Both the position numbers and the translations under genes were made by a program. Below are positions 13,326 through 57,433 of a DNA stretch of 64,000 nt, one piece after another. Origin of the DNA: a virus. Under the pieces are notes generated by a model. It did no database searches. It was not told the DNA's origin and saw nothing but the letters and a program-made list of their open reading frames with translations. Position 1 is the stretch's first letter, and each line of letters starts with the position of its first letter. The DNA lies in the IMG/VR virus record IMGVR_UViG_3300045988_150343; one strand, 5' to 3'.

Positions 13326-13937
13326 ATGGACAAACAACCAAAGCCGATTATCGGCACACACAATTCAATGACATTCCTACGACCTGCAAAGTGGTACGGA
13401 TGGTTTATGATACCTTTCGCTCGTTGTCAAAATAAGGATATAGAGCAACAATGGGAAGCAGGGGCAAGAGTTTTTGATTTGAGGGTTAAGTTTGATAGGT
13501 ATGGACATTCATATTTCGCCCATGGCCTATACGACTGCTCATCTCGCTTCACACTGAATGACGCATTGACTTTAATCGAGCGCCTCCACCTTTACCACAT
13601 CCACTTTTACCACAAAGAAGAGGTATATGTACGTTTGATTCTTGAAGATACAAAGAATGAGAATTACCAAGCAGAGTATTTCCGCAAAGCCTGCAAACGT
13701 ATTGAAAAAGAGTTTGAGCACATTCACTTCTTCGGTGGCAATCGCAAGGGCAATTGGACGAAGCTCTACGTCTTCAAGGAAGATGTCCCCGATTCGCTCA
13801 ACAACCAATGGGTATCATCAATGGCGGATGATGCTCGATGGTATGAGAAGTTCCTACCGTTTACTTATGCACTGAGATGCAATAAGCGCAACAAAGCGAA
13901 GGTGAAACCAAAGTTTAATTTATTTGATTTTATATAA
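13326..13937 (+). CDS. PI-PLC X-domain-like phosphodiesterase
   Basis: IIGTHNSMTF ... QQWEAGARVFDLRV ... YFAHGLY ... VYVRLILED parallels Bacillus PI-PLC IPGTHDSGTF ... QMDHGARIFDIRG ... VLHHGPLY ... IIMSLKKE, including both catalytic His positions and the Arg-Asp pair (alignment from memory). Confidence 0.6.
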   Translation: MDKQPKPIIGTHNSMTFLRPAKWYGWFMIPFARCQNKDIEQQWEAGARVFDLRVKFDRYGHSYFAHGLYDCSSRFTLNDALTLIERLHLYHIHFYHKEEVYVRLILEDTKNENYQAEYFRKACKRIEKEFEHIHFFGGNRKGNWTKLYVFKEDVPDSLNNQWVSSMADDARWYEKFLPFTYALRCNKRNKAKVKPKFNLFDFI

Positions 13938-19288: not shown

Positions 19289-19684
19289 TTAGTCGTAAAT
19301 ATGTTTTATTGTTACTACCAGGGTTACTCCATTGAAAGTGTAATCCCAATCTCCATCTCCGTTGATCTCTTCATCATTGAAGGCCATCTCGAGTAGATCC
19401 AGGATATCCCTTTGATTGAGGTCTGAGTTGAGGAATTGCCCTTTGCAGGTATATACCAGGATAAAGGTTGAATAGAATTGTGTATCGAAAGCCCAGGTAA
19501 AGAGTACCTTATTAAGATTGAAATTAATGGAGAGAAGCTTGAGGCCAAGATTCCAGTTTTTGGGTTGTGCCCAAATATTAAAGGCCTCTTCAATGGATAT
19601 CTGATCGAAGGGCAGATTCTTGTCCTTGATAGGGGTTAGGACCTCTAGTAGAGGTTTTTGGTTTTGGTTTTGGTTCTGGTTCAT
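19289..19684 (-). CDS. Hypothetical early protein with an MNQNQNQNQ N-terminus
   Basis: A 131-aa ORF. Its leader and first codons are duplicated at 25157 (aaaacatttaaaagATGAACCAGAACCAAAACC). Confidence 0.55.
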   Translation of the reverse strand: MNQNQNQNQKPLLEVLTPIKDKNLPFDQISIEEAFNIWAQPKNWNLGLKLLSINFNLNKVLFTWAFDTQFYSTFILVYTCKGQFLNSDLNQRDILDLLEMAFNDEEINGDGDWDYTFNGVTLVVTIKHIYD

Positions 19685-19717
19685 CTTTTAAATGTTTTTG
19701 AATTAATATTTATAATA

Positions 19718-24573: not shown

Positions 24574-24611
24574 AATACCCGAGAGATCTGAGAGATAACC
24601 TCTCGGGTATT
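24574..24611 (-). terminator. Hairpin after 24624..25157
   Basis: AATACCCGAGAG (24574-24585) pairs perfectly with CTCTCGGGTATT (24600-24611). Confidence 0.65.
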
Positions 24612-24623: not shown

Positions 24624-25157
24624 TTAAACGGCTTGAGCAGGTTTGAGAACTGAGTCCCGGAATTCCTCGTAGGCTTTCTTGGCCTTTTTGAACTCCTTGG
24701 AGTTTTGATCCTGGATACGGAGCATATCCCTTTCAAGAGTGCGGAGTTTGTTTCGGGTTTTCTGTCTCCAGGTTTTTCTGGAGAGAGTATCAGTTACATC
24801 CTCAGGGTAAAGGTATTTTACATCCCGGTGGGAGATAACCTCTTCCATAATAGAAGGCTTCTGTTGTTTGGCAGTTTCTGTAACTGCCTTGGCTTTAGCA
24901 GATTTTTTCTTTTTAAGTTTCACCTCTTTAGTGATTTCAGGAGCGGTTTCTCCTTTGATCTTTTTGGCCTTTTCGGGAGCAGCCGTTTCTTGAGCAGTTT
25001 TCTTAGCCTTAGCTGCTTTGTTTTTCTTAGCCTTCTTTACTTTGGTTTCTGTTGCAGTTGTGGTAACGAGTTCCTCGATAGGAAGTTCCTGTTTAGCAAC
25101 TTTGGCCTGGATTGCCTGGGTTGAAGCGATTGCTTCTGGGTTTTGGTTCTGGTTCAT
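24624..25157 (-). CDS. Lys/Ala-rich H1-like basic protein
   Basis: The N-terminal half KVKKAKKNKAAKAKKTAQETAAPEKAKKIKGE...KLKKKKSAKAKA is low-complexity K/A/E. The C-terminal ~70 aa look structured. It has its own promoter and terminator. Confidence 0.6.
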   Translation of the reverse strand: MNQNQNPEAIASTQAIQAKVAKQELPIEELVTTTATETKVKKAKKNKAAKAKKTAQETAAPEKAKKIKGETAPEITKEVKLKKKKSAKAKAVTETAKQQKPSIMEEVISHRDVKYLYPEDVTDTLSRKTWRQKTRNKLRTLERDMLRIQDQNSKEFKKAKKAYEEFRDSVLKPAQAV

Positions 25158-25215
25158 CTTTTAAATGTTTTTAAATTAATATTGAATTGAACTATTGTAA
25201 TTTTTAATTACACTG

Positions 25216-25285
25216 CAAATATAACGCCTTATTTTGAACTGACCAAATTTTTAACGAATTATTTTCAAAATTGCCAGAGCGGGTA
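25216..25285 (-). promoter_or_regulatory. Early promoter cassette (variant with extra spacing to the ACCCGCTCT element)
   Basis: On the minus strand: TACCCGCTCT (25285-25276), TTTG (25247-25244), a 20-nt spacer, TAtaTTTG (25223-25216). Confidence 0.65.
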
Positions 25286-25848: not shown

Positions 25849-26136
25849 TTACTTCAAATTAAGGGGTGATTTACAAATGACGTATTCCTTAATGATATCC
25901 GAGAAGAACTTCCCTTTGGACTCGGCCTGAAGGAAATTGTTGTAAACGATGGGGTTTACCTTATACTGGTATACCCATTTGGGCATTTCACCGGGTTTAT
26001 AGGGTTTGAAAACCAGGTAGAGTCTTTTAGACTTTTCGTCATAGCCTTGGAGGTAAAGATTTGAGGAGTCTACTTCCTCAAACTTAATCCCCAGAATGCC
26101 CGAGAGATGTTGGATTAATTTTTCTGTGGTAACCAT
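25849..26136 (-). CDS. Hypothetical early protein
   Basis: A 95-aa ORF. No motif recognised. Confidence 0.5.
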   Translation of the reverse strand: MVTTEKLIQHLSGILGIKFEEVDSSNLYLQGYDEKSKRLYLVFKPYKPGEMPKWVYQYKVNPIVYNNFLQAESKGKFFSDIIKEYVICKSPLNLK

Positions 26137-26489
26137 ATTAGTTTGATTTCTGGGTGAAACTTCTTGTACATTTCATCAAAGAGGTCCCACATAGCAATTA
26201 CTCCATCTACATTGGTTTGAACCCAAGTTTCTTCCATGACGAATAGTATGTGGACGCATATCCCAAGTTGGTATTCTGGGATCCCGGTGATAGCCTCAGG
26301 CATTTCCTTGATAAACTGCCAGTACCTAATTCTTCGATCCAGTACCTCTAAGATATCATTGTTATTAAATTCAATGAGTTCGTTAAGTTGGTACTGATCA
26401 ACTGAATTAGGTACTGCCTTGAGTTTCTCAAAGGAAGTAATCTGGATATCAGCCAGCTCTTGGATTAATGTTTTTAATTCTTTTTTCAT
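26115..26489 (-). CDS. Hypothetical early protein (possibly a leaderless mRNA)
   Basis: The ATG at 26489 lies only 4 nt downstream of the -7 box TAaaTTTG (26501-26494). Confidence 0.55.
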   Translation of the reverse strand: MKKELKTLIQELADIQITSFEKLKAVPNSVDQYQLNELIEFNNNDILEVLDRRIRYWQFIKEMPEAITGIPEYQLGICVHILFVMEETWVQTNVDGVIAMWDLFDEMYKKFHPEIKLIWLPQKN

Positions 26490-26493: not shown

Positions 26494-26542
26494 CAAATTT
26501 AATTATTTATTTTATAATATGCAAATTTAATCAGAGCTGGTA
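26494..26542 (-). promoter_or_regulatory. Early promoter cassette
   Basis: On the minus strand: TACCAGCTCT (26542-26533), TTTG (26525-26522), a 20-nt spacer, TAaaTTTG (26501-26494). Confidence 0.7.
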
Positions 26543-27440: not shown

Positions 27441-27482
27441 GAAGGAGATGAGGCTGGAAACTTCCAAATCCCCACCTCCTTC
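27441..27482 (-). terminator. Strand-specific hairpin after 27523..28116
   Basis: A 13-bp stem that is perfect only in the minus-strand RNA: GAAGGAGGUGGGG pairs with CCUCAUCUCCUUC using two G-U wobbles. The same two positions are A-C mismatches in the plus-strand RNA. Confidence 0.55.
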
Positions 27483-27522: not shown

Positions 27523-28116
27523 TTAATCTTCGTCCTTGGCTTTAGATTTCTTTTTATCCTTTTTAGCCTTCTTCTCTTTTAAAGGCTTTTCAGGAACAGC
27601 CGGTACTTTTTTAGCAGCCTTAGCCTCCTTTTCCTTTTTGGGTTTTGCTTCGCCTTTATTAGCGAGGCGACGTTGTTCGGCTCGATACTTTTTCTTTTCA
27701 TCGGCAGTCATCTCTCGGCCATCGATGAGAGGATAGTTATACTTGGTAGGAGTTGCAGCCTTAGCCTTTTTCTCCTTTTGAGCCTTTTCAGTTTCCTCTT
27801 TCTTAGGGGCTTTAGCCACATTGGCAGTAGCTTCCTTTGCAGCCTTCTTGGCTTTCTTGGCCTCTTTTTCGGCCTTTTGCTTCTTTTCTTTCATTTTAAC
27901 TAATTTAGTTTCGTTATGTATGTCATTATAAGGATAGTTATCCAGTACCTTATCCCGTTCAAGGTTTAACCTAGTGACCAAACGGGTTACTTCTTTGCCA
28001 TTAACTTTATCCTTTCTCCAGTCTTTCATTGGATTAAGGTTATGCCTCTTAAGATAATCTTTAAGAGCATTCTTAGCTTGAAGTAAAGCAGTTGTTTTTG
28101 TTTTGGCTGATTCCAT
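27523..28116 (-). CDS. Lys/Ala/Glu-rich H1-like basic protein
   Basis: KEKKQKAEKEAKKAKKAAKEATANVAKAPKKEETEKAQKEKKAKAA ... KPKKEKEAKAAKKVPAVPEKPLKEKKAKKDKKKSKAK. The N-terminal ~70 aa are non-repetitive. Confidence 0.6.
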   Translation of the reverse strand: MESAKTKTTALLQAKNALKDYLKRHNLNPMKDWRKDKVNGKEVTRLVTRLNLERDKVLDNYPYNDIHNETKLVKMKEKKQKAEKEAKKAKKAAKEATANVAKAPKKEETEKAQKEKKAKAATPTKYNYPLIDGREMTADEKKKYRAEQRRLANKGEAKPKKEKEAKAAKKVPAVPEKPLKEKKAKKDKKKSKAKDED

Positions 28117-28137
28117 ATAATTGGGATATGTATAATC

Positions 28138-28527
28138 CTATAGTGGGAGTTCCTTTATAAAAGTTGGGATTTCCCGGATTTCTAGGATAACTATTTTTGG
28201 TCCTTCCCTTGTATCATTCATTTGCCTAACAAAATATTCAAAATCGTCTTGGGATATATCCGTAAGAACTGCCCTAAACTTTCTATCGGGTAGACCTGGA
28301 AAGGCCTGAATATAGGTAACATCTAGAATATGTCCCTTAAATACAACTAATTTAATTGATTGAGTTAAATGCTTAATTCTAGATATCAACTGGTTCCTCC
28401 TAATACGGGAGGATTGAGACTTCCCAGGAGAATCCTTATATTGAACTGCCCTGACTAATTCAGAGGATAATTCATCTAAGGTTTCCTTAAGCCTTAAGAT
28501 GTAGGTTCTGATGTTTGATTTATCCAT
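28138..28527 (-). CDS. Hypothetical early protein
   Basis: A 129-aa ORF. No motif recognised. Confidence 0.5.
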   Translation of the reverse strand: MDKSNIRTYILRLKETLDELSSELVRAVQYKDSPGKSQSSRIRRNQLISRIKHLTQSIKLVVFKGHILDVTYIQAFPGLPDRKFRAVLTDISQDDFEYFVRQMNDTREGPKIVILEIREIPTFIKELPL

Positions 28528-28730
28528 AAAATAGAGAATATTTCTTGTTGAACGGGTTCAGGTAGTTGTTGGAGTTTCATTTTAAGAAGATAAACAGCCC
28601 TATCATGAACATCATAAAAGGCCATCTTATCCTCTTGGGTTTCTAAAACAAAATCCTCTTGGGTTAATTGCCTTCGGTAAGTTTTAATCAAACAATCCAA
28701 AGCAAGTACTTCAATAAGCAGATCTTCCAT
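28494..28730 (-). CDS. Hypothetical early protein
   Basis: A 78-aa ORF. No motif recognised. Confidence 0.45.
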   Translation of the reverse strand: MEDLLIEVLALDCLIKTYRRQLTQEDFVLETQEDKMAFYDVHDRAVYLLKMKLQQLPEPVQQEIFSILWINQTSEPTS

Positions 28731-28747
28731 ACCTCTAGAAATAAAAA

Positions 28748-28784
28748 GAGGGAGAGCCTATCCTCTTTTAGGTGGCTCTCCCTC
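28748..28784 (-). terminator. Hairpin after 28826..29242
   Basis: GAGGGAGAGCC (28748-28758) pairs perfectly with GGCTCTCCCTC (28774-28784). Confidence 0.65.
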
Positions 28785-28825
28785 GACCTTGATTATTTTA
28801 TGAGTAAAGTAAGGGTTTTTCGGAT

Positions 28826-29242
28826 TTAGTCCTCACCGGTAATATCCCCCTCCTCGTCTGAGTCTTCTTCCTCTACCTGGCCCTTTTTGTGTTTAGGTTT
28901 AGAGAAATTGCCATGATTCTTCTTCGACTTGATGGTGAGTTCTCCTGGGACGAATGTTGTGCTGGTTCCGATTACGTTGCCCTCGGCATCAGTAACTACT
29001 GAAGTAACCAGGACTCCCATATAGGTACCACCTACCTTAACCGGATGACCGTAGTTAGTAACTTTGGTACCGTTTGCGCCAAAGATAACATCGATGGATT
29101 TCGAGTTAGGTCGCTGCTCGGCAGGACGATTCTTAATTGCTTCGAGACGAGCTTTTTTCTTTGCAGCCTTCTCTTCAGGAGTCATAACCTTTTTGGTTGA
29201 TGCCTTAGGGGCATCCTTTTTTGTAGCTTTCTTTGTAGCCAT
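28826..29242 (-). CDS. Protein with a basic K/A-rich N-terminus, beta-rich core and acidic tail
   Basis: MATKKATKKDAPKASTKKVMTPEEKAAKKKARLEAIKNRP... then a globular region, then ...KKGQVEEEDSDEEGDITGED. Confidence 0.6.
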   Translation of the reverse strand: MATKKATKKDAPKASTKKVMTPEEKAAKKKARLEAIKNRPAEQRPNSKSIDVIFGANGTKVTNYGHPVKVGGTYMGVLVTSVVTDAEGNVIGTSTTFVPGELTIKSKKNHGNFSKPKHKKGQVEEEDSDEEGDITGED

Positions 29243-29299: not shown

Positions 29300-29339
29300 A
29301 GCTAACCCAACCTTTCGGAAGGATATAGTTGGGTTAGCT
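29300..29339 (-). terminator. Hairpin after 29362..30021
   Basis: AGCTAACCCAAC (29300-29311) pairs perfectly with GTTGGGTTAGCT (29328-29339). Confidence 0.65.
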
Positions 29340-29361: not shown

Positions 29362-30021
29362 TTACTTCTTTCCCTTTTTACCTTTATTGGCTTTAGGAAG
29401 AGAAATCCCCATTTCCTTGGCTATTGCCTTGCGGAGCTTCTCTACATCGTCTTCGTCAAAGTCATCTGGGTCAGTTTCGAGTTCATGATCATCGCATACA
29501 TCCTCGAGTTCCTCGAAGTCCATATCGGCGAGATCCTCTCCGGTAAGTTCTTCGTCGGAGTCGTCGTCTTCTTCTTCCTCCTCGTCTTCGTCGGAGTCGT
29601 CGTCGTCTTCTTCCTCCTCCTCGTCTTCGTCGGAGTCTTCATCATCTTCTTCCTCCTCGTCTTCGTCTTCTTCGTCTTCGTCTTCGTCGTCTTCTTCGTC
29701 TTCGTCTTCGTCGGAGTCTTCGTCGTCTTCTTCGTCTTCGTCGGAGTCGTCGTCTTCCTCCTCGTCGGAGTCGTCGTCTTCCTCCTCGTCGTCTTCGTCC
29801 TCGTCGTCTTCGTCCTCGTCGTCCTCGTCGTCTTCGTCCTCGTCGTCGTCGGAGTCTTCGTCGGAACCGAAGAAAGAAGATACCTGTTCTGCAGTAAGTT
29901 TAATAGGATTAGGTATAAACTGAAGAGTACCATCTTCGAATTTGATGATAACTCCGCCCTCAACTTCCAGGCGTTCTACTTCAGCAACTGCTGCCTTCTT
30001 TTCTGTTTTTTTCTTTGCCAT
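29362..30021 (-). CDS. Polyacidic protein (~115-residue Asp/Glu/Ser tract)
   Basis: A basic/beta N-terminus (MAKKKTEKKAAVAEVERLEVEGGVIIKFEDGTLQF...), then SDEDSDDDEDEDDEDDEDEDD...DDDSDEE, then an acidic-helical end and a basic tail (KANKGKKGKK). The gene is bracketed by its own terminator. The other-frame and antisense ORFs here are repeat shadows. Confidence 0.7.
   Translation of the reverse strand: MAKKKTEKKAAVAEVERLEVEGGVIIKFEDGTLQFIPNPIKLTAEQVSSFFGSDEDSDDDEDEDDEDDEDEDDEDEDDEEEDDDSDEEEDDDSDEDEEDDEDSDEDEDEEDDEDEDEEDEDEEEEDDEDSDEDEEEEEDDDDSDEDEEEEEDDDSDEELTGEDLADMDFEELEDVCDDHELETDPDDFDEDDVEKLRKAIAKEMGISLPKANKGKKGKK
29545..29870. repeat. Low-complexity GAN-codon (gtc/ttc/ctc on the plus strand) tract
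   Basis: About 325 nt of degenerate trinucleotide repeats encoding the D/E/S tract. Open in several frames. Confidence 0.9.
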
Positions 30022-31718: not shown

Positions 31719-32300
31719 TTATTTAGATGTTTGTTGTGCCTGGCGTATTTTGCGTTTAGCAGCTGTATGCCAGAGTTTAATAGATTTCTCGTTAGCATCG
31801 GGGAACTTCTTGAGGACTCTTCTCTTAATACGTTCTATATCGTAACCCTTTGAAGTAAGTTCAAAGACATAAGATTTTTTGGTGCCTTTTATAAGGTTAT
31901 GTTCATCCCTTTCCCGAGGAGCTTTCTTTGTCCGAGGTTTGGGAATTCCTCTAACCCTTTTTCTTCGAGGCTCTCCCGTTTCTGGATCTTCTCCAAGATA
32001 ACCCAATCGAAGTCGGTTACTTCTTAATGGGTCCTTTTCACTGTAACCCAGTGAAGCAAGGTGTTCATCCATCCAGTCGTCATATTTATCTAGTAAAGTT
32101 GGGTCTGGAGCTTGGTTTGCCCGGTTAATGTAGAATTGGAGTCTTCCCCAATCAGAGTTTACCACATCTACAAAGGGCATACCCAGAACGACTGCCATTC
32201 TTTGAGCATCTTTGAAAGTGTGAGCAGAACCCATTCGTCCAAGAAGCTTAGCCTTTCCAGGGTGCATATTCTGGAGCTTGGATTGTTTTTTCTTTGCCAT
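31719..32300 (-). CDS. Hypothetical basic protein
   Basis: A 193-aa ORF, the first gene after the promoter at 32335..32392. Confidence 0.55.
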   Translation of the reverse strand: MAKKKQSKLQNMHPGKAKLLGRMGSAHTFKDAQRMAVVLGMPFVDVVNSDWGRLQFYINRANQAPDPTLLDKYDDWMDEHLASLGYSEKDPLRSNRLRLGYLGEDPETGEPRRKRVRGIPKPRTKKAPRERDEHNLIKGTKKSYVFELTSKGYDIERIKRRVLKKFPDANEKSIKLWHTAAKRKIRQAQQTSK

Positions 32301-32334: not shown

Positions 32335-32392
32335 CAAATTTAGATATAATTTTTGAATTGACAAAATTATTTTTCACAATTCAAGAGCTGGT
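32335..32392 (-). promoter_or_regulatory. Early promoter cassette (overlaps the 3' end of 32367..33353)
   Basis: On the minus strand: ACCAGCTCT (32392-32384), TTTG (32365-32362), a 19-nt spacer, TAaaTTTG (32342-32335). Confidence 0.65.
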
Positions 32393-41058: not shown

Positions 41059-41847
41059 TTAAATGTCAGTAGCTTTTTTCTTTTTCTTCTTTGATACCAC
41101 CTTGTCGGATGATAAGGATGACTTCTTCTTTTTAGGACGGGGTTCATCTTCATCCTCCTCCTCTGATGATTCATTAAGATAACTCTTGAGTATTTCTTCG
41201 AGTTCATCATAGGATTTGATTTGAGCCCTTACCATTTTCTCAAGTTCTACAGGCTTAGTATACTTCTTGTCTAGTTGAGTTGGTTTGCAGTTCATTACCG
41301 AATAAGTGGTATCAAATTGACCCTTACCTGTACGGGTAATCTTAATATCATAACCCGTTTTTGGATCGGTCATATCACCAGCCTCATCTTCATCGAGATA
41401 GAGATTGATGATATCCTGATATACTTGAGCAGTTACCAGGATTACTCTATCCTGACCATCATATCCGATGTGTTTACCTTTCTCATCATCATAAACCAGT
41501 CCGCCTACTACATATCGGCGTTTAGGAATAAGTTTTTTTGCCAGTTCTTTATCATCCGGATCAGATGAATTATGGAGTTCCTGATACTTCTCCATAATTG
41601 GACAGGGTTCTCCAAAAGTCTGGGGAGAATATACCGAACCGATGTTCGGACCAAGATAAAACTGAATTAATTCAAGGCCAAGTTCTTCGTCCTCTCCAGG
41701 ACTTTTAATCCTAATACGGGTTACACCTTCTTTACAGAAGATAAAACCAGAGTTTTTACCTTTCTCTTCTAGTTTCTTCTTTCTAGCCAGCATCTTCTCC
41801 TTAGTGGTCATACCAGTAGAAGATAGCTTTTTCTTTTTTTCTTTCAT
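41059..41847 (-). CDS. gp32-like single-stranded DNA-binding protein
   Basis: Its architecture parallels T4 gp32 (from memory): RIRIKSPGE vs IRFLPS; EPCPIMEKYQELHNSSDPDDKELAKKLIPKRRYVVGGLVYDD vs [39 protein letters not shown]. It has an acidic tail ESSEEEDEDE and lies next to recA. Confidence 0.55.
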   Translation of the reverse strand: MKEKKKKLSSTGMTTKEKMLARKKKLEEKGKNSGFIFCKEGVTRIRIKSPGEDEELGLELIQFYLGPNIGSVYSPQTFGEPCPIMEKYQELHNSSDPDDKELAKKLIPKRRYVVGGLVYDDEKGKHIGYDGQDRVILVTAQVYQDIINLYLDEDEAGDMTDPKTGYDIKITRTGKGQFDTTYSVMNCKPTQLDKKYTKPVELEKMVRAQIKSYDELEEILKSYLNESSEEEDEDEPRPKKKKSSLSSDKVVSKKKKKKATDI

Positions 41848-42684: not shown

Positions 42685-42938
42685 CCGTGCATAATACTTT
42701 GATAGGGTTTGTTGTGGGTATGGGTTATAAAATAATCACTGGGTATTAAAAATCCACAGATAACGCAGGGTAACCCCTTAGGGGCTAATGTATCACGAAA
42801 ATACTGCAACTTGCTTACAGGGATGTAATTATTATGTTTACATCTCGGGCAGGTTGCAGTAATATTATCAGGTATGTTCTTGGATGAACTGTTGCTCATA
42901 TTGCTTAATCTCTTTACTGAAAACTTTTGGGTATTCAC
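42681..42938 (-). CDS. Small zinc-ribbon protein
   Basis: CPRC...(21 aa)...CVIC is a four-Cys arrangement. The ORF overlaps the 3' end of polA by 32-71 nt, depending on which start is used. Confidence 0.45.
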   Translation of the reverse strand: MNTQKFSVKRLSNMSNSSSKNIPDNITATCPRCKHNNYIPVSKLQYFRDTLAPKGLPCVICGFLIPSDYFITHTHNKPYQSIMHG

Positions 42939-45900
42939 TAATATCTAAACTCTTGTATTTCCTATGCTCTTCCATATATTCCTCTACTGAAAAATTTGGT
43001 TCAAGCATTTTTCTATAGTCATATAGAGGTATGAAAGGTAGTTCCTCTGCCATGGTCCTCCCGATAGAAAAGTCCATAGACATATTAACATCATCTATCT
43101 GAAAGCCAAAGTAATGTTTAGTACTTGGGTTCCTTAATATATTCCAGATAGTGTATACCGTCCATACATTTATGTACTGTGGTAGAGTATACTGATAAAC
43201 AGAGTCATGTACTGTGCAGCATTCCTCCATCCGGGGAAGTTTACCTTGCCTCATTAACCAATAAATGAGTACTGACCCAAAGTTAGTCATATTAGCTGCA
43301 GCTCCTTGACAATTACCGGTTATGATAGTTCGGTATCTTTTATCCTCCCCAATAACTCGAGTAAAGAAAGCTCCAGAAGGTACTGTGGGACACCATACTT
43401 TACCCTCATAGGGTTCTTTAGATAAATTATTCTCCGAGTTATAAGAGTTTCGGGTATTAACCGACTTACGGAAATTAGAGAACCTAACCCCATAACTTGT
43501 TTGGGTAGCCGTTATTGATTCTTGACCATATTTAGTTGGCTCTTTGAAGTAAGAGGTATCACCCTCATGAGATAACTCGAACATTGAGGAAGAGTTATTG
43601 CAGAGTACTGCAATAGCTTGTACAAGTTCAGCTTGGTCTCTTTTATTAGAAGCAAATATACTCCACCCATCTCCTAATCTCAAACTAGTTAACAAGAGCT
43701 CTAACTGATTCTGAGGTAAGGAGGAGATAAACTTCATGTCCATCCTTTTGCCCGGTACAATAGCATCTATCCTTTGTACAAAATCCTTGTCTAGGATAGT
43801 CCATACTTTGATATCACCGTGATGGGCTAAGTGTTCAGAGTACCTTACCCCTAAACTTTGTATCAACTCATCTATGATGTCTACCTTTTCCTTATTTGAT
43901 TTGATACTCTGAGTTATTCGGATATTACCTCTCCTCATCATATGACCATCAGTTAAATACCAACCTATAAAAGATATCCAAGCATCAGGGTATATTTTAA
44001 CATTAAGATTGTTATGTTCTGCTCTAATGGGTATAGCTAAACTCCTTCTAGAATTTAGTAACTCCTCAGAAGTTTTAATCCTTGTAGAAGTTAAGTCACT
44101 AATTCTTTTAGTAGAACTAACCACCCATCTATGGTCTGGAGTAGATAGTACGTCCAAATGTTTAGTCTTAAACCTTACCAATTCGCCCTTGTAATCAAAA
44201 ATATTTACCGAGATTACTGGCTGCCACTCAGATTTACCTGTTTCTCTATTGAAGGCAAGTATTTCATCTCCACGTTCTAGCTCCTCATAATTAACCCAAC
44301 CCTTAGTCTTACTTAATGCTTGAGATGTTGGAGTTAAACAGGGGAAATTAAGGCCAAGGCGTATGGCATAAGCCTGCTGTTCATGATCATCGCCCCATAT
44401 CTCAGGAAGTCTTCTCTTTGTTCCGAACAACTGTCGATAATAACCGTGCTTACGAAGGAATCTCTCTTGTTTATCCTTAAATTTCTTGATTTTAGGATGT
44501 TCTTCAAAAAACTCATCCATAATCTGTTTAGCCTCATCCTTAGTAACTACAAGCCCCTCTTTTGGGTCTGATAGTTTCTCAGCAAGTAGGCCAGGACCAA
44601 TACCATAAATAAGACCAAACGCAATCTGTTTAGCCTGTTTACGTCTACCTTTCCATAATTTATAATCCGGATGTTGTTCATCATTATAAGCAGCAATCGC
44701 TTCAGCGGGATCAGCATGATACTTATTAATAGCAATGGCAAGGTGAGGATCAACCCCTTCTCTAAATGCCTTAAGATAGGTCTCATCTCCTGAAAGATGA
44801 GCCATCATTCTTAACTCAGCCTGAGAATAGTCATATGCCAAGTAAAGTCTTCCTTTTGGAGCTATAAGTTGCTTTTTAATATTGGGGTCTACAGAGGTTT
44901 TAGGTATCTGTTGTAGATTGGGTTCTGCAGATGAATATCTATTAGAGTCGGTACCTATAATATTTATTCGCCCATGAAGACGAGAGTCAGATTGTACTTT
45001 CTCGTGCCAACCCAATATATAGGTCTTATACATCTTCTCTAAACCTCTAAGTTCAAGGAGTTTATCCAGAAAGATAGCTTTAGGAGAATTTGAGTTTTCA
45101 ACAGTTAGCCTTAACTTAATCAGGGTTTCCTCATCTGTACTTATCCCCCCAGAATCCGTGTTTTTTATAACAGGGAACTTAAACCCTTTTGGGTGAGTAA
45201 ACATAAGTAGAGGGAGAGTTACATTGGAATTAAGGTTGGGAGGATCTAGTAATGCTAACTCAGTCTTGGTCGTAAATACTCCAGCCCGTATATTTGCTAT
45301 CTTCTGCTCCCTCAAGGCAATCTTTCTAGCATTCTTTGGGTCACTGTAGTCCATTTCATCCAATTCATCCTGAATCTTTTGAAGATAAGTATCTATCTTC
45401 TCTTGAGCTAATAGTTTGGAGAACTTAACTACTCGGGGGAGTGACATAACAGTTTCCCTAGCAGCATCTATCTTTTCCTTGTAGGAGTGTAGAAGTTCCT
45501 CATTGAACTGGGTATCTATGTATAAACCACATTTTTCAAGGGAAGTTAGTACTCTTGAGCCAGTAGCAAATAGGTTACGGTAAGTATTATACATACCTAT
45601 ATCCATAAGCTTTTTCTCGAAGAACATACAAAGTCTGAGAGTATAGTCGGTATCCTGACAACCATAAAAACAAAGCGGTACGAGTTCCTTTCTATCCCAG
45701 GGTATCTTGTCGAATTGTTCTGCCTTTTCATAATCTCCCATACTTGGGAGGTATCTTCTAACCATTTCCTTTAGACCGTGAGGTTTCTCCTCGTTCAGCA
45801 AGTATTTCATTATCATGCCGTCTAATAGAGCTCCTCGATAAAATATCTTAAATAGATGTTCCCATATCTGACCATCAAACTTAAAGTTCCAAGCACATTT

Positions 45901-46203
45901 AGTGATATTGGGGTTTTCTATGAGTTGATGACCTATCCATTTGAGAGCTTTAAGCCTTTGTTTTCGGGGAAATTGTATACCCTTTGAAGCATAATACTCA
46001 TCAGCTTGGAAATGGTCAAGAGGTATAGCACAACCAAACCCAGGCATAAAGGATACCGATAGGATAGTTACCCTAAAGGTATCTTTATATATAGGCTCTG
46101 CATTCGTCTCAAAGTCGTTGCAGCAATAACCCATTTTCTTACAGGCTTTTATAAGCTGTTTAACCTCTTTTAGTGAGCTTAATATTTTATATCTTGTTTC
46201 CAT
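42868..46203 (-). CDS. polA: Family A DNA polymerase with 3'-5' exonuclease domain, interrupted by an intein
   Basis: Exo motifs CNDFETNA, NFKFDGQIW and YGCQDTDYTLRL. Pol motif A YDYSQAELRMMAHLSGD, motif B RRKQAKQIAFGLIYGIG, motif C TVHDSVY. The conserved N-F-P-x-Q-G-x-A-A block is split as LNFP / intein / CQGAAANM. Confidence 0.95.
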   Translation of the reverse strand: METRYKILSSLKEVKQLIKACKKMGYCCNDFETNAEPIYKDTFRVTILSVSFMPGFGCAIPLDHFQADEYYASKGIQFPRKQRLKALKWIGHQLIENPNITKCAWNFKFDGQIWEHLFKIFYRGALLDGMIMKYLLNEEKPHGLKEMVRRYLPSMGDYEKAEQFDKIPWDRKELVPLCFYGCQDTDYTLRLCMFFEKKLMDIGMYNTYRNLFATGSRVLTSLEKCGLYIDTQFNEELLHSYKEKIDAARETVMSLPRVVKFSKLLAQEKIDTYLQKIQDELDEMDYSDPKNARKIALREQKIANIRAGVFTTKTELALLDPPNLNSNVTLPLLMFTHPKGFKFPVIKNTDSGGISTDEETLIKLRLTVENSNSPKAIFLDKLLELRGLEKMYKTYILGWHEKVQSDSRLHGRINIIGTDSNRYSSAEPNLQQIPKTSVDPNIKKQLIAPKGRLYLAYDYSQAELRMMAHLSGDETYLKAFREGVDPHLAIAINKYHADPAEAIAAYNDEQHPDYKLWKGRRKQAKQIAFGLIYGIGPGLLAEKLSDPKEGLVVTKDEAKQIMDEFFEEHPKIKKFKDKQERFLRKHGYYRQLFGTKRRLPEIWGDDHEQQAYAIRLGLNFPCLTPTSQALSKTKGWVNYEELERGDEILAFNRETGKSEWQPVISVNIFDYKGELVRFKTKHLDVLSTPDHRWVVSSTKRISDLTSTRIKTSEELLNSRRSLAIPIRAEHNNLNVKIYPDAWISFIGWYLTDGHMMRRGNIRITQSIKSNKEKVDIIDELIQSLGVRYSEHLAHHGDIKVWTILDKDFVQRIDAIVPGKRMDMKFISSLPQNQLELLLTSLRLGDGWSIFASNKRDQAELVQAIAVLCNNSSSMFELSHEGDTSYFKEPTKYGQESITATQTSYGVRFSNFRKSVNTRNSYNSENNLSKEPYEGKVWCPTVPSGAFFTRVIGEDKRYRTIITGNCQGAAANMTNFGSVLIYWLMRQGKLPRMEECCTVHDSVYQYTLPQYINVWTVYTIWNILRNPSTKHYFGFQIDDVNMSMDFSIGRTMAEELPFIPLYDYRKMLEPNFSVEEYMEEHRKYKSLDISEYPKVFSKEIKQYEQQFIQEHT
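43312..44340 (-). mobile_element. 343-aa intein with a LAGLIDADG homing-endonuclease domain, inside polA
   Basis: Cys1 codon at 44340-44338 (LNFP|CLTPTSQAL). Block B TPDHRW. Two LAGLIDADG-type motifs FIGWYLTDGHMM and LLTSLRLGDGWS. C-terminal ...RTIITGN|CQGAAANM, with the Asn codon at 43314-43312 and a +1 Cys. In frame, 1029 nt. Confidence 0.85.
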
Positions 46204-46216
46204 ATAATAACATAGT

Positions 46217-46277: not shown

Positions 46278-47123
46278 TTAAATTTTATTCTTGAGTACGT
46301 CATCTATGTTGGATTTAAGGAATACCCAATCCTTTTTATAGGCATGAAGAGAATCAATGGTGTGATAGAGATAACCCACTTCTACCGCATCTTCATCAGA
46401 TTTTTTGTATCTATTTATGAGTTCAACCATATATTCCATGAGTTTCCAGGCCAAGTATACATCATTACCAAAATGCTGAACAAAGTCAGAACTTCTTTGA
46501 TGATAACAGATGTTCAGTTTACCATTACGGAGAAGGAAGTCGAAGTACATAGAGCAGGGAATGCGATGTGCACCATCCATGAAGTCTATGTCCCTTTCAA
46601 TGGTATAGCCATTAGGACATCCGTGACCTTCCTCGTCGTGATTGTAACGAGTATAGGTTCCATAGATTGGGAGAATTGCTTTGCGAGTATCGGGGTCTTC
46701 TGCCAGTTGGATAGCTATTGCCTCGATGAGTTTGTGGATACCCCCCTTATAGGTTACTGCCTGATTGATGCGTTCACCATAGGAGTAGTCGAAACGGAGG
46801 AGACCCTCTCCATCCTGAACCAGGAATTCCTCCCACATTTCAGGACGAAGTTTATATGCAGAACCAGGGTTTATTTCGCCTTTGATGCGTTCTGCAAATT
46901 CAGCCTCAGCCCAGGCTTTATCTTTGGTGAATGCGAACAGATACTGAACTTCATCGAGAGAAGTTAAGCAGTACTGCTCACATATTAATTCTTTAGTTAC
47001 AAAGTCATCATTACCTTCAATGTTCTTGTTTTGATAGGTCTTGGGTTTAACTTCTTTGCCCATTTCCCAGAGGTCTCTGCCCATTTCAGACATGAGCTCT
47101 TCGCAGTTTTCGTATATTCTCAT
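46278..47123 (-). CDS. ThyA-fold pyrimidine dNMP hydroxymethylase/thymidylate-synthase family protein (dCMP-hydroxymethylase-like specificity residue)
   Basis: DPDTRKAILPIY (compare T4 gp42 NPDSRRGIMIY). Catalytic Cys in IPCSMYF, followed exactly 20 residues later by HQRSSD. There is an Asp at +11 from that Arg (HFGND), the position that is Asn177 in E. coli ThyA and Asp179 in T4 gp42. Confidence 0.75.
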   Translation of the reverse strand: MRIYENCEELMSEMGRDLWEMGKEVKPKTYQNKNIEGNDDFVTKELICEQYCLTSLDEVQYLFAFTKDKAWAEAEFAERIKGEINPGSAYKLRPEMWEEFLVQDGEGLLRFDYSYGERINQAVTYKGGIHKLIEAIAIQLAEDPDTRKAILPIYGTYTRYNHDEEGHGCPNGYTIERDIDFMDGAHRIPCSMYFDFLLRNGKLNICYHQRSSDFVQHFGNDVYLAWKLMEYMVELINRYKKSDEDAVEVGYLYHTIDSLHAYKKDWVFLKSNIDDVLKNKI

Positions 47124-47127
47124 TGTT

Positions 47128-47469
47128 CTAAGAATTTAATTTGAGATATTGTTGATTAATTATGGGATATAATAGTTTAGCTGCTTCTATAGGTGTAACC
47201 GGCTTAAATCGGGGTTCATTTGAATAGGGTTTATTTTCTAAGAACATACCCATAGGCCTAGCCCAAGTTTGAGTTGGATGGAAGTCCTCTAACTCGGGTA
47301 CATATTCCTTGTACAGGTAAAGAGTTTCTCCAGTCTCTGAATGTATAGCTTCTCCTACCTTAGCTACAAGCTTACCCTTAAAGTGTACATATAAGTTACC
47401 CCAATCTTTAAGCCACTTTTCAATTTGATAGAGGGGTACTTCGTCTAACTTATTTACGAACTCCATCAT
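47128..47469 (-). CDS. DUF1653-like protein
   Basis: LYVHFKGKLVAKVGEAIHSETGETLYLYKEY...TWARPMGMFLE fits DUF1653 (YrHyKG..Y.v...a.hsEt.e..VvY......w.RP..mF.e). Confidence 0.6.
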   Translation of the reverse strand: MMEFVNKLDEVPLYQIEKWLKDWGNLYVHFKGKLVAKVGEAIHSETGETLYLYKEYVPELEDFHPTQTWARPMGMFLENKPYSNEPRFKPVTPIEAAKLLYPIINQQYLKLNS

Positions 47470-48382
47470 TAGCCTCCTTTCTTAGTTTTGCTAAATACTT
47501 TTGCTTGTACTTTCTCCTCTGAGAATAAGATATGCACTCTTCTGGGTATTCTATATCTTCATCCTCGATAGTTAAGTCTTTTGCCAGTAGAGGTTTATAA
47601 GGATAATTATCTCTTCGGATAACCTTATAAGATCTGAAAAATACCTTGAAACGAGAAAATTCGCTTTCAGGACCATTCATGAATTTCTTGAATATCTCCA
47701 TTACCCTTTGATACCAAGGGTTACTCTTATCCATACCTTTCATAACCTTTTTAATGGATTTATAGGTATTATACATGAGCAATGTTTCAACATTGCCATA
47801 CATCTGACAAGCAAAGATATTAATCTGAACTGGCTGGTCGGGCCCATATACGTATTCAGCCATCCTTTGAACAAGTAGAAGGTCAAAAGCCAGCCTCTTA
47901 GTAACCTCGGATGCTCTTAAGTGTATGGTGATTACTGGGGTATCCTGCTGGAACCTTTTAGAGAAAGTAGCCGTTAGTAGGCATTGCTTACCATTATCAT
48001 GGGTGTTATGAAATACGTAGGGTAAATTATAATTCTGGTTATACTTCTGCTTCATACAACGGATTCGGCTTCTAAGTAAGTCTAACTTATTGAAGTCGAT
48101 ATAATTGTTAAGCAGAGTAGTCCACTTACTATCCGTGTAATTAAAGTACTTACCGAAATCAAATTCGGGGTCCATCCATGCCCTCTTTATTCTAACGAAG
48201 ATGTTATAAGATACAGATACACCTGAATTAGCCGTACCTCCCTGATCGAATAAAGAAGGGTCGAGACGAATAAATGCCTCATTTATACCTTCCCAAGCCT
48301 GTTGAGAAGTATGGAACTCGAGATGATGGCATGTTTCATCCGTGTTCATCTCGAGCCCCAAGGGTTTATTCCATCCTGCCAT
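47450..48382 (-). CDS. Second, highly diverged ThyA/HMase-fold candidate
   Basis: GKQCLLTATFSKR...ITIHLRASEVTKRLAFDLLLVQRM. A Cys lies 22 residues before an R-A-S-E block, and an Asp lies at +11 (AFD, compare PFN in ThyA and RND in gp42). The similarity is weak and was judged by eye only. Confidence 0.4.
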   Translation of the reverse strand: MAGWNKPLGLEMNTDETCHHLEFHTSQQAWEGINEAFIRLDPSLFDQGGTANSGVSVSYNIFVRIKRAWMDPEFDFGKYFNYTDSKWTTLLNNYIDFNKLDLLRSRIRCMKQKYNQNYNLPYVFHNTHDNGKQCLLTATFSKRFQQDTPVITIHLRASEVTKRLAFDLLLVQRMAEYVYGPDQPVQINIFACQMYGNVETLLMYNTYKSIKKVMKGMDKSNPWYQRVMEIFKKFMNGPESEFSRFKVFFRSYKVIRRDNYPYKPLLAKDLTIEDEDIEYPEECISYSQRRKYKQKYLAKLRKEANDGVRK

Positions 48383-49257
48383 TAGTAGTTAGATTTTTGG
48401 CGAAAGCGATTAACCCGGTTCTTCTTAAAGAAGAGATAATAGAGATTTTCAGGTGTAATCCCCATTATTACGTGATAACCAAATAGTTTAGCTATGCCCT
48501 GGAAAAGGTGTTCAAAGTATGGAGCTTCATCAGAAAGTTCTCCACTCTGTTTCCAAGGTTTATTTTTTAGAAAGTTTCTACCAACTCCCAGGTGATACTG
48601 TATCTGCCATAGGTAGCTCATTTCTCGGTGATGAAAAAGTGAGGATAGGTTATGAAATCCAGGGCAATAGGATTTTACCTTAAGATAATCCTCGGCATTC
48701 TCAAAACGGTCTATGGATAACAGTTCATATTGAAGACTCCCGGTATCTTCTAGTATAACAGAATCAAACGAATTAAGTAACTTAGTTCCCGTTATCATAA
48801 GTAACTCTAGAAGTGGACGACTTTCACATTCTGAGTCTTCTGGTAATTGGCTTAATGCCCATTCCCTCAAATCCTGTGGAGTAATTCCGGCATATATGAG
48901 AAGCTCAAGGAAGAATGCCGAGGCATCTGCCTGTTCCTCATTGGAGTTCTGTATATGGTTAAGGAGCATCTTATACTCCTTATTAGATAAGAGGTCTAAG
49001 TTCCAACCGACTTTCTCCATCATTTCTACGGCATAATGGGTAGATTCATAACCCTCTGCCAATTCTTCTACTACTCGAGAAGCAAAATCCTTGAGAACTA
49101 CCTGAGACTTTTTAGAGTTGATGTTAATAGGGTATTGAGGTAGCCCCTCAATACGGATATAGCCTTCCATTAACTCTTTCTGCAGGTCGAACATTTTCTC
49201 GAGATAAGCTCCACCCTCTACTTTGGGTGGTTCCTCTTTGATGTTTCGAATATCCAT
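48382..49257 (-). CDS. All-alpha (dimeric dUTPase/T4 gp56 dCTPase-like) dNTP pyrophosphatase
   Basis: Metal-binding helices RVVEELAEGYES and EEQADASAFFLELLIYAGI. The C-terminus GITPENLYYLFFKKNRVNRFRQKSNY closely parallels the remembered T4 gp56 end GMNAEEIFKLYYLKNKENFARQDRGY. Confidence 0.6.
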   Translation of the reverse strand: MDIRNIKEEPPKVEGGAYLEKMFDLQKELMEGYIRIEGLPQYPININSKKSQVVLKDFASRVVEELAEGYESTHYAVEMMEKVGWNLDLLSNKEYKMLLNHIQNSNEEQADASAFFLELLIYAGITPQDLREWALSQLPEDSECESRPLLELLMITGTKLLNSFDSVILEDTGSLQYELLSIDRFENAEDYLKVKSYCPGFHNLSSLFHHREMSYLWQIQYHLGVGRNFLKNKPWKQSGELSDEAPYFEHLFQGIAKLFGYHVIMGITPENLYYLFFKKNRVNRFRQKSNY

Positions 49258-49296
49258 ATAAAATCTGTTTATTTGAATGTTAAGTTAGAATAGTCC

Positions 49297-49959
49297 TTAG
49301 ATCGAGTAATGGGCATCACGTAATGCGAGTTCGTCTTCTAAGGAAAGTTTCACACCGTCGCTTGAACCAAAACCTTTATCTCCTCGGGTCCCCCAGTTCT
49401 TAGCCATATCTTCGTATAACTGTTTAGGTATCTCCTCTGGTTCGGTATCAAAAATGGGTACATGAATAAACTGTACTATCTTTTCTCCGGGTTTCAGAGT
49501 TACGTTAGAATTACTAGTATTTATGAGAGAGATGTGTACTTCTCCAGTATAAGGAGAGTCTACTATCTCAGCTCCAAAAATAAGACCCTTTTTAGTGCAT
49601 ACTCCTGACTTATTAGCTGCCATAAACATAGATTGCTTGGGTTCGAGTAATACCCGAATACCAGAGGGGATAAGGATACGAGCATGAGGTCTGATTGTTA
49701 CAGCATCAATGGGCTGATCATATAAGTATAGAGGATCATTTTGGCCTGAATCATGGACCCAACCATGGGCCCAGGTATCTTTTCCCACGGTAAATTCTAA
49801 CCCATAAGTATTAAGTACCTGTTCAGCTTGTTTTTCTAAAAGCTGGTTGACTGTTAAATCTTCGGGGAAGAAGAAGTCAAGTCCAGCATCCCCCGAATTT
49901 GCCCGGGCTAAAGGTTTTACCTTTCGTACTCGGGTGTAACGAATGGATGGTCTGTTCAT
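49297..49959 (-). CDS. dut: Trimeric dUTPase
   Basis: All five motifs in order: SGDAGLDF, RILIPSGIRV, KSGV..KGLIFGAEIVDSPYTGEV, GEKIVQFI and RGDKGFGSS. Confidence 0.85.
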   Translation of the reverse strand: MNRPSIRYTRVRKVKPLARANSGDAGLDFFFPEDLTVNQLLEKQAEQVLNTYGLEFTVGKDTWAHGWVHDSGQNDPLYLYDQPIDAVTIRPHARILIPSGIRVLLEPKQSMFMAANKSGVCTKKGLIFGAEIVDSPYTGEVHISLINTSNSNVTLKPGEKIVQFIHVPIFDTEPEEIPKQLYEDMAKNWGTRGDKGFGSSDGVKLSLEDELALRDAHYSI

Positions 49960-50351
49960 TGTTTTAATTCTTTATATATTTTGCGTACGATTTTCTTAGG
50001 CACTTCAAACTTCTCAGAGGTTTTAATTATAATCTCCTTACGTTCTTTACCTTTCCGGATTAATCCTCTCATGTACTTCTTCATCCCTGCTACATCTTCC
50101 AGAATATCCAGATCCTTGTATTGGTTTTTCTCTTCAAGTTCCTTGCGAGTAACCTTCAGCATCTGAGACATTTTGATAGCACATAATTCGGAGTCTCCAC
50201 AGAGTTTACATTCCTTAGTGGAAAGGTCGTATGCTTTACCAAAGCAGGGGTCGGAATTAATATCCCCGATTTCCTTCAGGTTAAGCGGAGTAAGAGGATC
50301 ATGTTTAGTAAGTATTTCCTCTGAAGTTTTCTTCTTAAGTTTCTTAGCCAT
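49956..50351 (-). CDS. Hypothetical Cys-containing basic protein
   Basis: The ORF track start is 50375. I prefer the ATG at 50351 (MAKKLKKK). It contains CFGK...CKLCGDSELC. Confidence 0.5.
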   Translation of the reverse strand: MAKKLKKKTSEEILTKHDPLTPLNLKEIGDINSDPCFGKAYDLSTKECKLCGDSELCAIKMSQMLKVTRKELEEKNQYKDLDILEDVAGMKKYMRGLIRKGKERKEIIIKTSEKFEVPKKIVRKIYKELKQ

Positions 50352-56776: not shown

Positions 56777-57433
56777 ATGAAACCTAAAGAAGAACGAAAC
56801 GGTTCCGAGATACACAGGTTAACTGGAATGCCCGAGAATTATGACCGGGAACTTTTTCAGAGATTATACCGGGTTACTCGCCCAGTAATTAGAAACCTCA
56901 CCAGAACCATTGACCATAGGAGATTTAATGTAACTCCGGATATTATTGCCTCTTACTTTGATGACAAGTTCTTATTTGTCTTCAACAAGTATTATGGTAC
57001 TTGTTCAGAAGAACATTTACAGGCAAATATCTTGAGAGCATTATCCACTTTTAAGAATAAACTTCTCAGAAGTGCTTACGGAGAAAAAGCTGAGTACAAC
57101 CAGAGTTTAACTTCAATGGAAGACTTATTTGATAATAGTAAGGAACTTGAGGATGACTCTGAAGAAGTAGAAGTTAAAGAAGAACACATGAAAATGATTG
57201 AGGATTACATGAGGAAGAATCTATCTCCGGATGCTTTCCTTATCTTCCAATTAACCATGGACCCTCCCGAGGTTTTACTTCCTACGGATGAACGAGGGAA
57301 AAGAATACCCAATATTACTTTTGTGGATTTCTTTGAATTGCCCAGGACCCGGTCCTCAGTTAATTATATTGCAGATCTCCGTAAGGATATAGAATACTGG
57401 ATTCATCAAGCCCAAAAGGAATTAAAATATTAA
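56777..57433 (+). CDS. Possible phage sigma-like/transcription factor
   Basis: YDRELFQRLYRVTRPVIRNLTRTIDHRRFNVTPDIIASYFDDKFLFVFNKY loosely resembles sigma-70/ECF region 2. It has an acidic central linker and a possible C-terminal HTH. It is an isolated plus-strand gene with its own promoter and terminator. Confidence 0.35.
   Translation: MKPKEERNGSEIHRLTGMPENYDRELFQRLYRVTRPVIRNLTRTIDHRRFNVTPDIIASYFDDKFLFVFNKYYGTCSEEHLQANILRALSTFKNKLLRSAYGEKAEYNQSLTSMEDLFDNSKELEDDSEEVEVKEEHMKMIEDYMRKNLSPDAFLIFQLTMDPPEVLLPTDERGKRIPNITFVDFFELPRTRSSVNYIADLRKDIEYWIHQAQKELKY

Follow-up and report, generated by a model that had tools for sequence, protein, structure and literature searches.

Three lysine-rich proteins and a polyacidic neighbor, all encoded on the minus strand of a 64,000-nucleotide stretch of viral DNA (IMG/VR record IMGVR_UViG_3300045988_150343, hereafter the window), likely form a coordinated charged-protein set, as judged from their sequences and gene order. 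The basic proteins are the products of genes A (24624..25157), B (27523..28116), and C (28826..29242), and the acidic protein is encoded at 29362..30021. We tentatively propose, at somewhat short of an even chance, that A, B, and C are abundant, non-sequence-specific nucleic-acid-binding polycations buffered by their polyanionic partner, and we hypothesize that they may coat or compact DNA. We infer that the genes are expressed early and abundantly, that the basic proteins bind nucleic acid, and that they interact with the acidic protein. None of the four families has annotated members; they belong with a kind of protein already known, the charged low-complexity proteins for which nucleic-acid binding is presumed.

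A first-pass annotation of this DNA had called attention to three genes carrying long K/A/E/P low-complexity tracts fused to different small domains. All three open reading frames (ORFs) and both tract peptides that it quoted were recovered, and the tracts proved genuine: when the 90 minus-strand ORFs with an ATG start and at least 60 residues were ranked by their best 30-residue segment for K+A+E+P, genes A, B, and C took the first three places (densities of 0.90, 0.80, and 0.73, against 0.60 for the next ORF). The isoelectric points (pI) of the proteins are 9.98 for B, 9.95 for A, and 9.42 for C. Within the window, the tracts contain lysine at fractions of 0.32–0.42, alanine at 0.16–0.25, D+E at 0.10–0.20, and proline at 0.02–0.09, giving a net charge per residue (NCPR) of +0.22 to +0.26; in relatives, alanine falls to about 10% (0.10–0.16) and D+E rises to about 20%. 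The modules to which the tracts are joined do differ, and they carry invariant Arg, Lys, Asn, and Gln residues on helices. Paralogy of the three proteins was rejected, with BLASTP E-values of at least 0.28 and hhalign probabilities below 1% for every pair. Each family is large, wholly unannotated, and located on phage contigs, with 1946 homologs for A, 722 for B, and 681 for C.

The strongest support for a set comes from the order of its genes. Among 81 loci with matches (80 IMG/VR viral-contig loci and the GenBank phage MT121964, with about 45–53% identity in B), the order acidic gene, C, two small genes, B and, further on, A was found in 71, and MT121964 was also syntenic. The other 10 loci hold a subset, seven lacking only an acidic call and three lacking A, and some of these are cut at the locus end. 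In the window, the two small genes (78 and 129 residues) occupy 28138..28730 on the minus strand, and the spacing from C to B is similar in relatives. The same four genes in the same order were also observed just downstream of DnaB in L090, a locus from a far more distant clade (about 30% identity; B matches the family profile at 1.6e-21). Moreover, the termini of the proteins bear reciprocal charges. A C-terminal -ED occurs only in B and C among 80 ORFs of the window and is kept in 52 of 52 B-family members and in 35 of 37 among the C endings listed, while the acidic protein of relatives begins with MAKKK in 64 of 71 cases and ends with KGKK in 68 of 71. The tips of the polycations are thus acidic and those of the polyanion basic. 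Together with a promoter sub-class common to gene A and the acidic-C-B unit, these features strengthen the earlier proposal of a set with a polyacidic partner; co-variation of charge between the acidic and basic proteins was not significant. No description of a polyanion with three polycations bearing reciprocal tips was found in the phage literature searched.

Gene B best illustrates how the tracts are conserved. Its product of 197 residues (27% Lys, net charge +30) comprises a helical N-domain that is confidently predicted in the AlphaFold2 (AF2) model (residues 1–76, 27889–28116), a first K/A/E tract (residues 72–122, 27751–27903), the nearly invariant motif KYDYPLIDGREMTxxEKKKYRAEQRR (residues 123–152, 27661–27750, from the alignment), and a K-rich, disordered tail that ends in -DED (residues 153–197, 27526–27660), or in -DED or -EED across the family. 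In the model, a helix spanning residues 66–100 runs into tract 1, which is thus partly modeled as a long-helix extension, with the predicted local distance difference test (pLDDT) score dropping from 83 to 65; 10 of the 15 charged i/i+4 pairs of tract 1 are opposite in sign, and the remaining tract parts are predicted to be disordered. A charged single alpha-helix (ER/K) spacer, with which tract 1 may be compared, is a long, stable helix that has i/i+4 Glu-Lys/Arg pairs and lacks a hydrophobic core. In the 183 B-family members, the length of tract 1 is anywhere between 0 and 55 residues, and that of the tail between 34 and 81; median lysine content is 37–43%, the NCPR medians are +0.20 and +0.21 within a narrow band, and 179 of the 183 proteins end in ED. 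That length and sequence are free to vary while lysine, charge density, and the ED end are kept argues against neutral drift, and this pattern fits a functional, positively biased polyampholyte in which charge density, rather than sequence or length, is the conserved property. The tracts of C are likewise free in sequence and length, with a net charge density kept near +0.2.

The B family appears to be confined to phages. An exhaustive search of 1.84 billion representative proteins with the N-domain profile returned only 107 clusters, and the distant members that were sampled retain the full architecture, including the lysine-rich regions, a Y[DE]YP..G.PM...KKK[YF]R motif, and the acidic C-terminal tip; a tetratricopeptide repeat (TPR) protein (P0416), two repeat proteins (P0423 and P0463), and a fusion (P0391) were outliers judged uninformative. 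Across 185,579 species genomes, B was encountered only on three metagenome-assembled contigs from unrelated taxa, where mis-binning of phage DNA is the probable cause, and on a single isolate contig of 277 nt; the families were not found in isolate bacterial chromosomes.

Gene A encodes 177 residues (net charge +19), with a variable N-terminal K/A/E tract (residues 38–98, 24864–25046) followed by a C-terminal domain of about 80 residues that is strongly conserved in the alignment (residues 99–177, 24627–24863). Invariant columns of this domain include V113, K114, Y115, Y117, P118, W130, R131, and R135. The pattern KYxYP followed by [YW]RxxxR lies at invariant columns of both A (residue 114) and B (residue 125) and occurs nowhere else among 80 ORFs. 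Homology of the two modules found no support in a profile comparison (hhalign probability of 0.4%), and the pattern may represent a short linear motif common to A and B. Separately, a 45-nt segment at the start of gene A (25139–25183) is 98% identical to 19666–19710 on the same strand. It spans the 5′ untranslated region, start codon, and first six codons of A (MNQNQNPE) and of the unrelated gene 19289..19684 (MNQNQNQNQKP), which suggests that a promoter-proximal, untranslated-region, and start cassette was duplicated onto two different genes.

Gene C encodes 138 residues. A K-rich N-terminus and an invariant basic helix (residues 1–37, 29132–29242; invariant columns extend to S47), aligned as EKAAKRKARxEAIKNRPAxQRPNSK, precede a six-stranded beta core (residues 48–114, 28901–29101; modeled at a pLDDT of about 90) and an acidic tail ending in -ED (residues 115–138, 28829–28900). 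This layout, in which a basic N-segment leads into a core rich in beta strands and the acidic tail has a conserved tip, is reminiscent of T4 gp32, with its basic N-terminus and acidic C-terminus, and of the acidic tail of T7 gp2.5; the C model, however, gave no OB-fold (oligonucleotide/oligosaccharide-binding) proteins in Foldseek. A role for C as a single-stranded DNA-binding protein (SSB) was accordingly rejected, given no OB-fold match at E ≤ 0.001 and a gp32-type SSB encoded elsewhere in the window (41059..41847). The best Foldseek neighbor of C in the PDB was Lockin, a small phage ligand-sponge protein, at a non-significant E of 0.03.

The polyacidic protein announced by the first-pass annotation is equally real, with 219 residues and a net charge of −109. 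A MAKKK start and a small beta-hairpin unit are followed by a poly-D/E core of 118 residues (53–170) that is 87% D+E (NCPR −0.87), then by a conserved acidic helical C-domain and a basic KGKKGKK tip. The core is encoded by a tandem array (29549–29862) with periods of 24, 36, and 39 nt. Its length varies widely among relatives: the protein has 127 residues in one locus (L083, 1822-2205), 150–186 in 71 IMG/VR relatives, and 209 in another locus (L084, 199-828), while the domains flanking the core are conserved. Among relatives, the median net charge is −58 for the acidic protein and +55 for A, B, and C combined.

Regulatory signals link these genes to transcription by the host. A sigma-70 promoter scan performed at chance level (22 found, 21 expected) and was replaced by the motif that the repeat families of the locus themselves form in minus-strand reading, TTTG-N17-21-TAnnTTTG, which corresponds to the Bacteroidota −33/−7 promoter consensus (PMC12632263). 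Nine minus-strand matches were found against 0.46 expected from shuffles, eight of them within 15.2–32.4 kb. A relaxed intergenic search for the −7 element returned nothing upstream of replication or structural genes, and wherever an intergenic host-consensus −7 element occurs near the start of a minus-strand gene, its position is within 15.2–32.4 kb; this confinement makes it plausible that A, B, and C belong to an early or host-RNA-polymerase-driven class. Two promoter sub-classes can be distinguished between 15249 and 32365. In P19.7k, P20.4k, P22.0k, and P26.5k, the −33 element is immediately preceded by a conserved CCAGCTC box. In P17.2k, P25.2k, and P32.3k this box is missing, and the −33 region reads TTTG(G)TCA. 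The gene A promoter (TTTGGTCA...N...TATATTTG; 25216..25247, minus strand) is of the Bacteroidota type, TTTG-N20-TAtaTTTG without the CCAGCTC box, and P32.3k (32335..32365, minus strand), the host-type promoter of the acidic-C-B unit, falls into the same sub-class. As side observations on this motif, only about 3 nt separate the −7 element of P26.5k (26494–26525) from the ATG called at 26489 for gene 26115..26489, which implies either a leaderless transcript or a true start codon further downstream, and two perfect copies on the plus strand (12205–12236 and 56705–56736) precede the rare plus-strand genes 13326..13937 and 56777..57433.

Strong hairpins had been proposed behind B and C, and a promoter and terminator of its own for A; these assignments held, and a further hairpin was located behind the polyacidic gene. 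Gene A stands alone between its promoter and a terminator-like 15-bp stem-loop (24574..24611; −23.5 kcal/mol, z −4.96). Gene C is followed by a terminator-like hairpin with an 11-pair stem and a U-rich run (28748..28784; z −5.2 in a shuffle control), and the polyacidic gene by a 13-pair stem-loop (29300..29339; z −4.27). The 18-pair stem-loop after B (27441..27482; z −4.35) has no U-run and is possibly an RNA-stability or processing element. All four are minus-strand features. A further shuffle control took in the 24 intergenic gaps of 35 nt or longer and placed the four hairpins second to fifth (z −6.7, −5.2, −4.2, and −3.4), and in diverged relatives 60–75% of the equivalent positions had z below −3, compared with 24% at control genes. 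The strongest intergenic hairpin of the window lies elsewhere, in a 74-nt gap at about 46204–46277 (z −8.2, −32 kcal/mol), after a thymidylate-synthase-like gene (46278..47123) and directly upstream of Pol A.

The hallmark proteins of the window identify a contractile-tailed phage with nearly all genes on the minus strand. Terminase, portal, prohead protease, baseplate J, and a tail-collar fiber are encoded, with the head module at 1–12 kb, as are Pol A, DnaB, primase, a superfamily 2 (SF2) helicase, SbcCD, RusA, a UvsX-like recombinase, and the gp32-type SSB, together with thymidylate synthase and dUTPase. A structural block is followed by a DnaB/primase/PolA block and then by about 20 kb of orphan ORFs. 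The same colinear order is described for 'Flandersviridae', a candidate family of abundant gut phages of Bacteroides and Parabacteroides with genomes of about 85 kb, in which structural genes precede DnaB/DnaG/PolA and about 20 kb of ORFs without known function (PMC8008677). Contigs carrying homologs of A, B, and C measure 78–88 kb, and the promoters are of the type of Bacteroidota, the phylum given for the hosts of this family. In gene order and content and in the size of its relatives, the window matches an uncultured, 'Flandersviridae'-like gut phage. Its large terminase shares 71% identity with the terminase of MT121964, an unannotated phage from human feces, and the nearest cultured terminase relatives are Flavobacterium myophages (38% identity). 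Megablast found no close GenBank phage at the DNA level, and megablast with tblastn against 50,697 GenBank phages yielded MT121964 as the sole match.

The first-pass annotation had likened the tracts to histone H1, Hc1, and AlgP tails. This resemblance does not survive scrutiny: it is compositional only, with no family domain, repeat motif, or tandem periodicity, and on every feature tested A, B, and C fall outside the H1, Hc1, AlgP, and HU families. Linker_histone (PF00538) gave no Pfam match at E ≤ 0.1 for whole proteins or at E ≤ 1 for trimmed modules, and Foldseek on the B and C models found no winged-helix or H1 match. Likewise, the chlamydial Hc1 domain (PF07432) was matched neither in the Pfam scans nor in NCBIfam, and the HU/IHF fold Bac_DNA_binding (PF00216) was matched in none of Pfam, PHROGs, and NCBIfam. 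The C-terminal tail of H1 is a near-pure polycation of about 40% lysine, rich in alanine and proline, with almost no acidic residues and with S/TPKK motifs. The tracts described here are similar in lysine content, but they contain D+E at 0.10–0.20, little proline, and no S/TPKK. Repeats of the AlgP/Hlp/Ku type were also missing (zero KPAA, zero PAKK, and no PAKKA), and Tandem Repeats Finder detected no periodic array in the lysine tracts apart from one 24-nt unit of 2.2 copies in A. What A, B, and C have in common with H1 tails, chlamydial Hc1, Pseudomonas AlgP, and mycobacterial Hlp/Ku tails is enrichment in lysine and alanine, high pI, and low complexity; unlike in those tails, the alanine enrichment is not conserved in relatives. 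An electrostatic affinity for DNA would be plausible for both. In bacteria, modulation of DNA binding is reported for lysine-rich low-complexity tails such as the PAKKA tail of M. smegmatis Ku (PMC3553676).

A closer parallel is the eukaryotic pair of prothymosin-alpha (ProT-alpha) and linker histone H1, whose charges are −44 and +53 (PMC7661507). Here too, a strong polyanion stands beside lysine-rich polycations of similar total charge (−58 and +55 in relatives), and the oppositely charged regions are largely disordered, with an acidic core at an NCPR of −0.87 and basic tracts at about +0.2 that have pLDDT below 50. Nevertheless, no relationship in sequence or fold exists between the two systems. 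The basic partner is not a single protein but three, which have different conserved modules and 10–20% acidic residues in their tracts, and the acidic protein has basic tips and end domains that look folded. Furthermore, pairs of the ProT-alpha/H1 type bind each other directly and with high affinity, in competition with nucleic acid; for the proteins described here such an interaction would be a prediction, and co-variation of charge, an indirect test of it, was not significant. Among phage proteins, the abundant early nucleoid-type DNA binders phi29 p6 and SPO1 TF1 are comparable as small and apparently highly expressed, with A being monocistronic between a consensus promoter and a terminator; TF1, however, belongs to the HU family, which A, B, and C do not match, and no homology is indicated.

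Under the preferred reading of A, B, and C as buffered polycations, the proteins would be transcribed by host RNA polymerase from Bacteroidota sigma-A promoters within a 'dark' locus of about 20 kb. Output could be high, as the consensus promoter, the MAKKK/MATKK starts of C and the acidic protein, and the hairpin-bounded transcripts suggest. The products would then bind host or phage DNA non-specifically, the conserved basic helices docking and the lysine-rich tracts adding electrostatic affinity. In the manner of ProT-alpha with H1, the acidic protein might act as a polyanionic chaperone or competitor that keeps the polycations soluble, loads them, or strips them, or else basic nucleoid proteins of the host, from DNA. 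The -ED tips of B and C may fold back on basic regions as auto-inhibitors or dock a common partner. A more speculative extension, to which we assign a small probability, is that the polyanion and the three polycations with their reciprocal tips undergo complex coacervation, with or without DNA, and form a condensate in the infected Bacteroides cell. Such a condensate could act on the host nucleoid, reshaping it or switching it off, or house phage DNA as a membrane-less compartment, and it would represent a prokaryotic-virus counterpart of histone-chaperone and linker-histone chemistry in a highly prevalent family of human gut phages.

Several observations weigh against this interpretation. No DNA- or RNA-binding domain or fold was detected in Pfam, PHROGs, NCBIfam, PDB sequence searches, or Foldseek. 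In the first three databases, the whole proteins gave nothing above noise, and modules trimmed of low-complexity sequence still had no significant Pfam match; sub-cut-off family matches to YnzC (E 0.42), Sds3 (0.008), and FlgM (0.036) were taken as noise. PDB profile searches with the modules, also after removal of low complexity, found no significant match, nor did Foldseek searches of the B and C models against the PDB and BFVD, except for an uncharacterized C homolog in BFVD. The tracts, with their 10–20% acidic residues, are polyampholytes and weaker polycations than H1. In the A family, the tract is poorly conserved and its lysine richness is largely lost in relatives, and the long-helix continuation modeled for tract 1 of B suits a spacer equally well as a DNA-binding tail. 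The phage also already possesses its gp32-type SSB. The poly-D/E run ranges from about 12 residues in L083 to about 118 in the window, and the correlation between acidic charge and the combined charge of the three basic proteins was not significant (rho −0.21, p about 0.1). Variable length and missing co-variation count against a simple stoichiometric complex, and charge balance was rejected as evidence for one. Finally, no literature on expression or virion proteomes was found for Flandersviridae or Gubaphage.

Many of the same facts would suit independent host-takeover effectors, which we consider unlikely overall and yet the most credible of the alternatives. Each conserved module (the C-domain of A, the N-domain and YDYPLIDGREM motif of B, and the helix and beta core of C) would have its own target in the host, for instance RNA polymerase, a component of the replisome, or a factor of defense or secretion, with the lysine tracts serving as flexible or single-helix spacers or solubility tags and with the clustering beside the acidic gene reflecting common timing only. 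This explanation is consistent with three unrelated families whose conserved parts are short, motif-like, and nearly invariant, with the poorly conserved tract of A, and with the linker-like behavior of tract 1 in B, namely its variable length, modeled helix extension, and opposite-sign pairs. It also accommodates the Lockin sponge as the best, albeit non-significant, structural neighbor of C, and the small orphan genes that fill the locus are typical of takeover modules. On the other hand, charge density in B stays within its narrow band, and lysine at its medians, across deep divergence, which is more than a neutral spacer needs. The four genes also remain together in the same order across the family, and a common partner is suggested by the tips of opposite charge and by micro-motifs that recur between proteins (-ED at the ends of B and C; KYxYP confined to A and B).

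The features of charge argue equally for RNA and for DNA, and an RNA- or ribosome-directed role is a second alternative. Basic tails and helices would in this case bind rRNA or mRNA, as RNA chaperones or in the redirection of translation during takeover, and the acidic protein would be an RNA mimic or buffer. Ribosome-associated factors often have Lys/Glu-rich mixed-charge tails, and invariant helices rich in K, R, N, and Q, such as that of C (KAAKRKARxEAIKNRPAxQRPNSK), appear to resemble RNA-contacting extensions. However, no ribosomal-protein or RNA-binding family was matched, no RNA-binding fold was recovered, the neighborhood of A, B, and C holds no translation-related genes, and the window has no tRNA genes. 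We regard this role as improbable.

Proteins carried inside the virion are a further candidate, and one that we rate as quite improbable. The T4 head contains basic proteins mixed with an acidic polypeptide, and T4 IPI, IPII, and IPIII with the acidic internal peptides resemble the present set: several small basic proteins accompany an acidic polypeptide, and their genes are separate from the main head genes. Ejected with the DNA in a T4-like manner, A, B, and C could neutralize packaged DNA through their tracts, with the polyacidic protein as a scaffold-like or internal filler, and both the high-output signals and the hairpin-bounded genes would suit proteins needed in stoichiometric amounts. 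Unlike the T4 internal proteins, whose N-terminal capsid-targeting sequence is cleaved by the prohead protease, A, B, and C have no evident common N-terminal targeting or cleavage sequence. Their genes lie in a multi-promoter orphan locus, neither in nor beside the head module, and their promoters are of the host-consensus type, which neither the structural nor the replication block contains; in L090, moreover, the set adjoins DnaB. As for compositional drift, in which the tracts would be functionless products of fast-evolving orphan genes, the A-rich coding strand of the region (AT skew of −0.19 to −0.23 on the plus strand) and the poor conservation of tract sequence and length speak for it, but such density in only three of 90 ORFs and the retention of lysine fraction, charge density, and terminal -ED over hundreds of diverged homologs make it highly improbable.

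The surroundings of the set offered further observations. The locus around A, B, and C is crowded with small orphan genes, and the sole Pfam-recognizable gene of the immediate neighborhood encodes a small KTSC-domain protein (25849..26136; PF13619, E 5e-10). The first gene after P32.3k (31719..32300) encodes a basic protein of 193 residues with a MAKKKQSK start and an R/K-rich center and C-terminus; no family matches were obtained for it, and it may belong to the charged-protein set. In the replication block, Pol A (42868..46203) has 1111 residues, its exonuclease and polymerase Pfam domains spanning residues 6–621 and leaving about 490 C-terminal residues outside. A cluster at 46278..50351, comprising thymidylate-synthase-like, NTP-pyrophosphohydrolase (MazG-like), and dUTPase-like genes, may be a sign of altered nucleotide pools or modified bases.

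Phages of this kind are among the most prevalent in the human gut, and their 'dark' locus of about 20 kb is without assigned functions (PMC8008677). Within it, a deeply conserved four-gene module has now been defined, with boundaries, regulatory signals, and invariant motifs that render it experimentally approachable. Should the proposed role prove incorrect, YDYPLIDGREM, the -ED tips, and KNRPAxQRPNSK would still be useful handles for host targets. If A, B, and C do coat or condense nucleic acid under the control of a polyanion, the module would provide a bacterial-virus example of disordered polyelectrolyte chaperoning and would constitute a new phage strategy of nucleoid takeover or genome protection in Bacteroidota.

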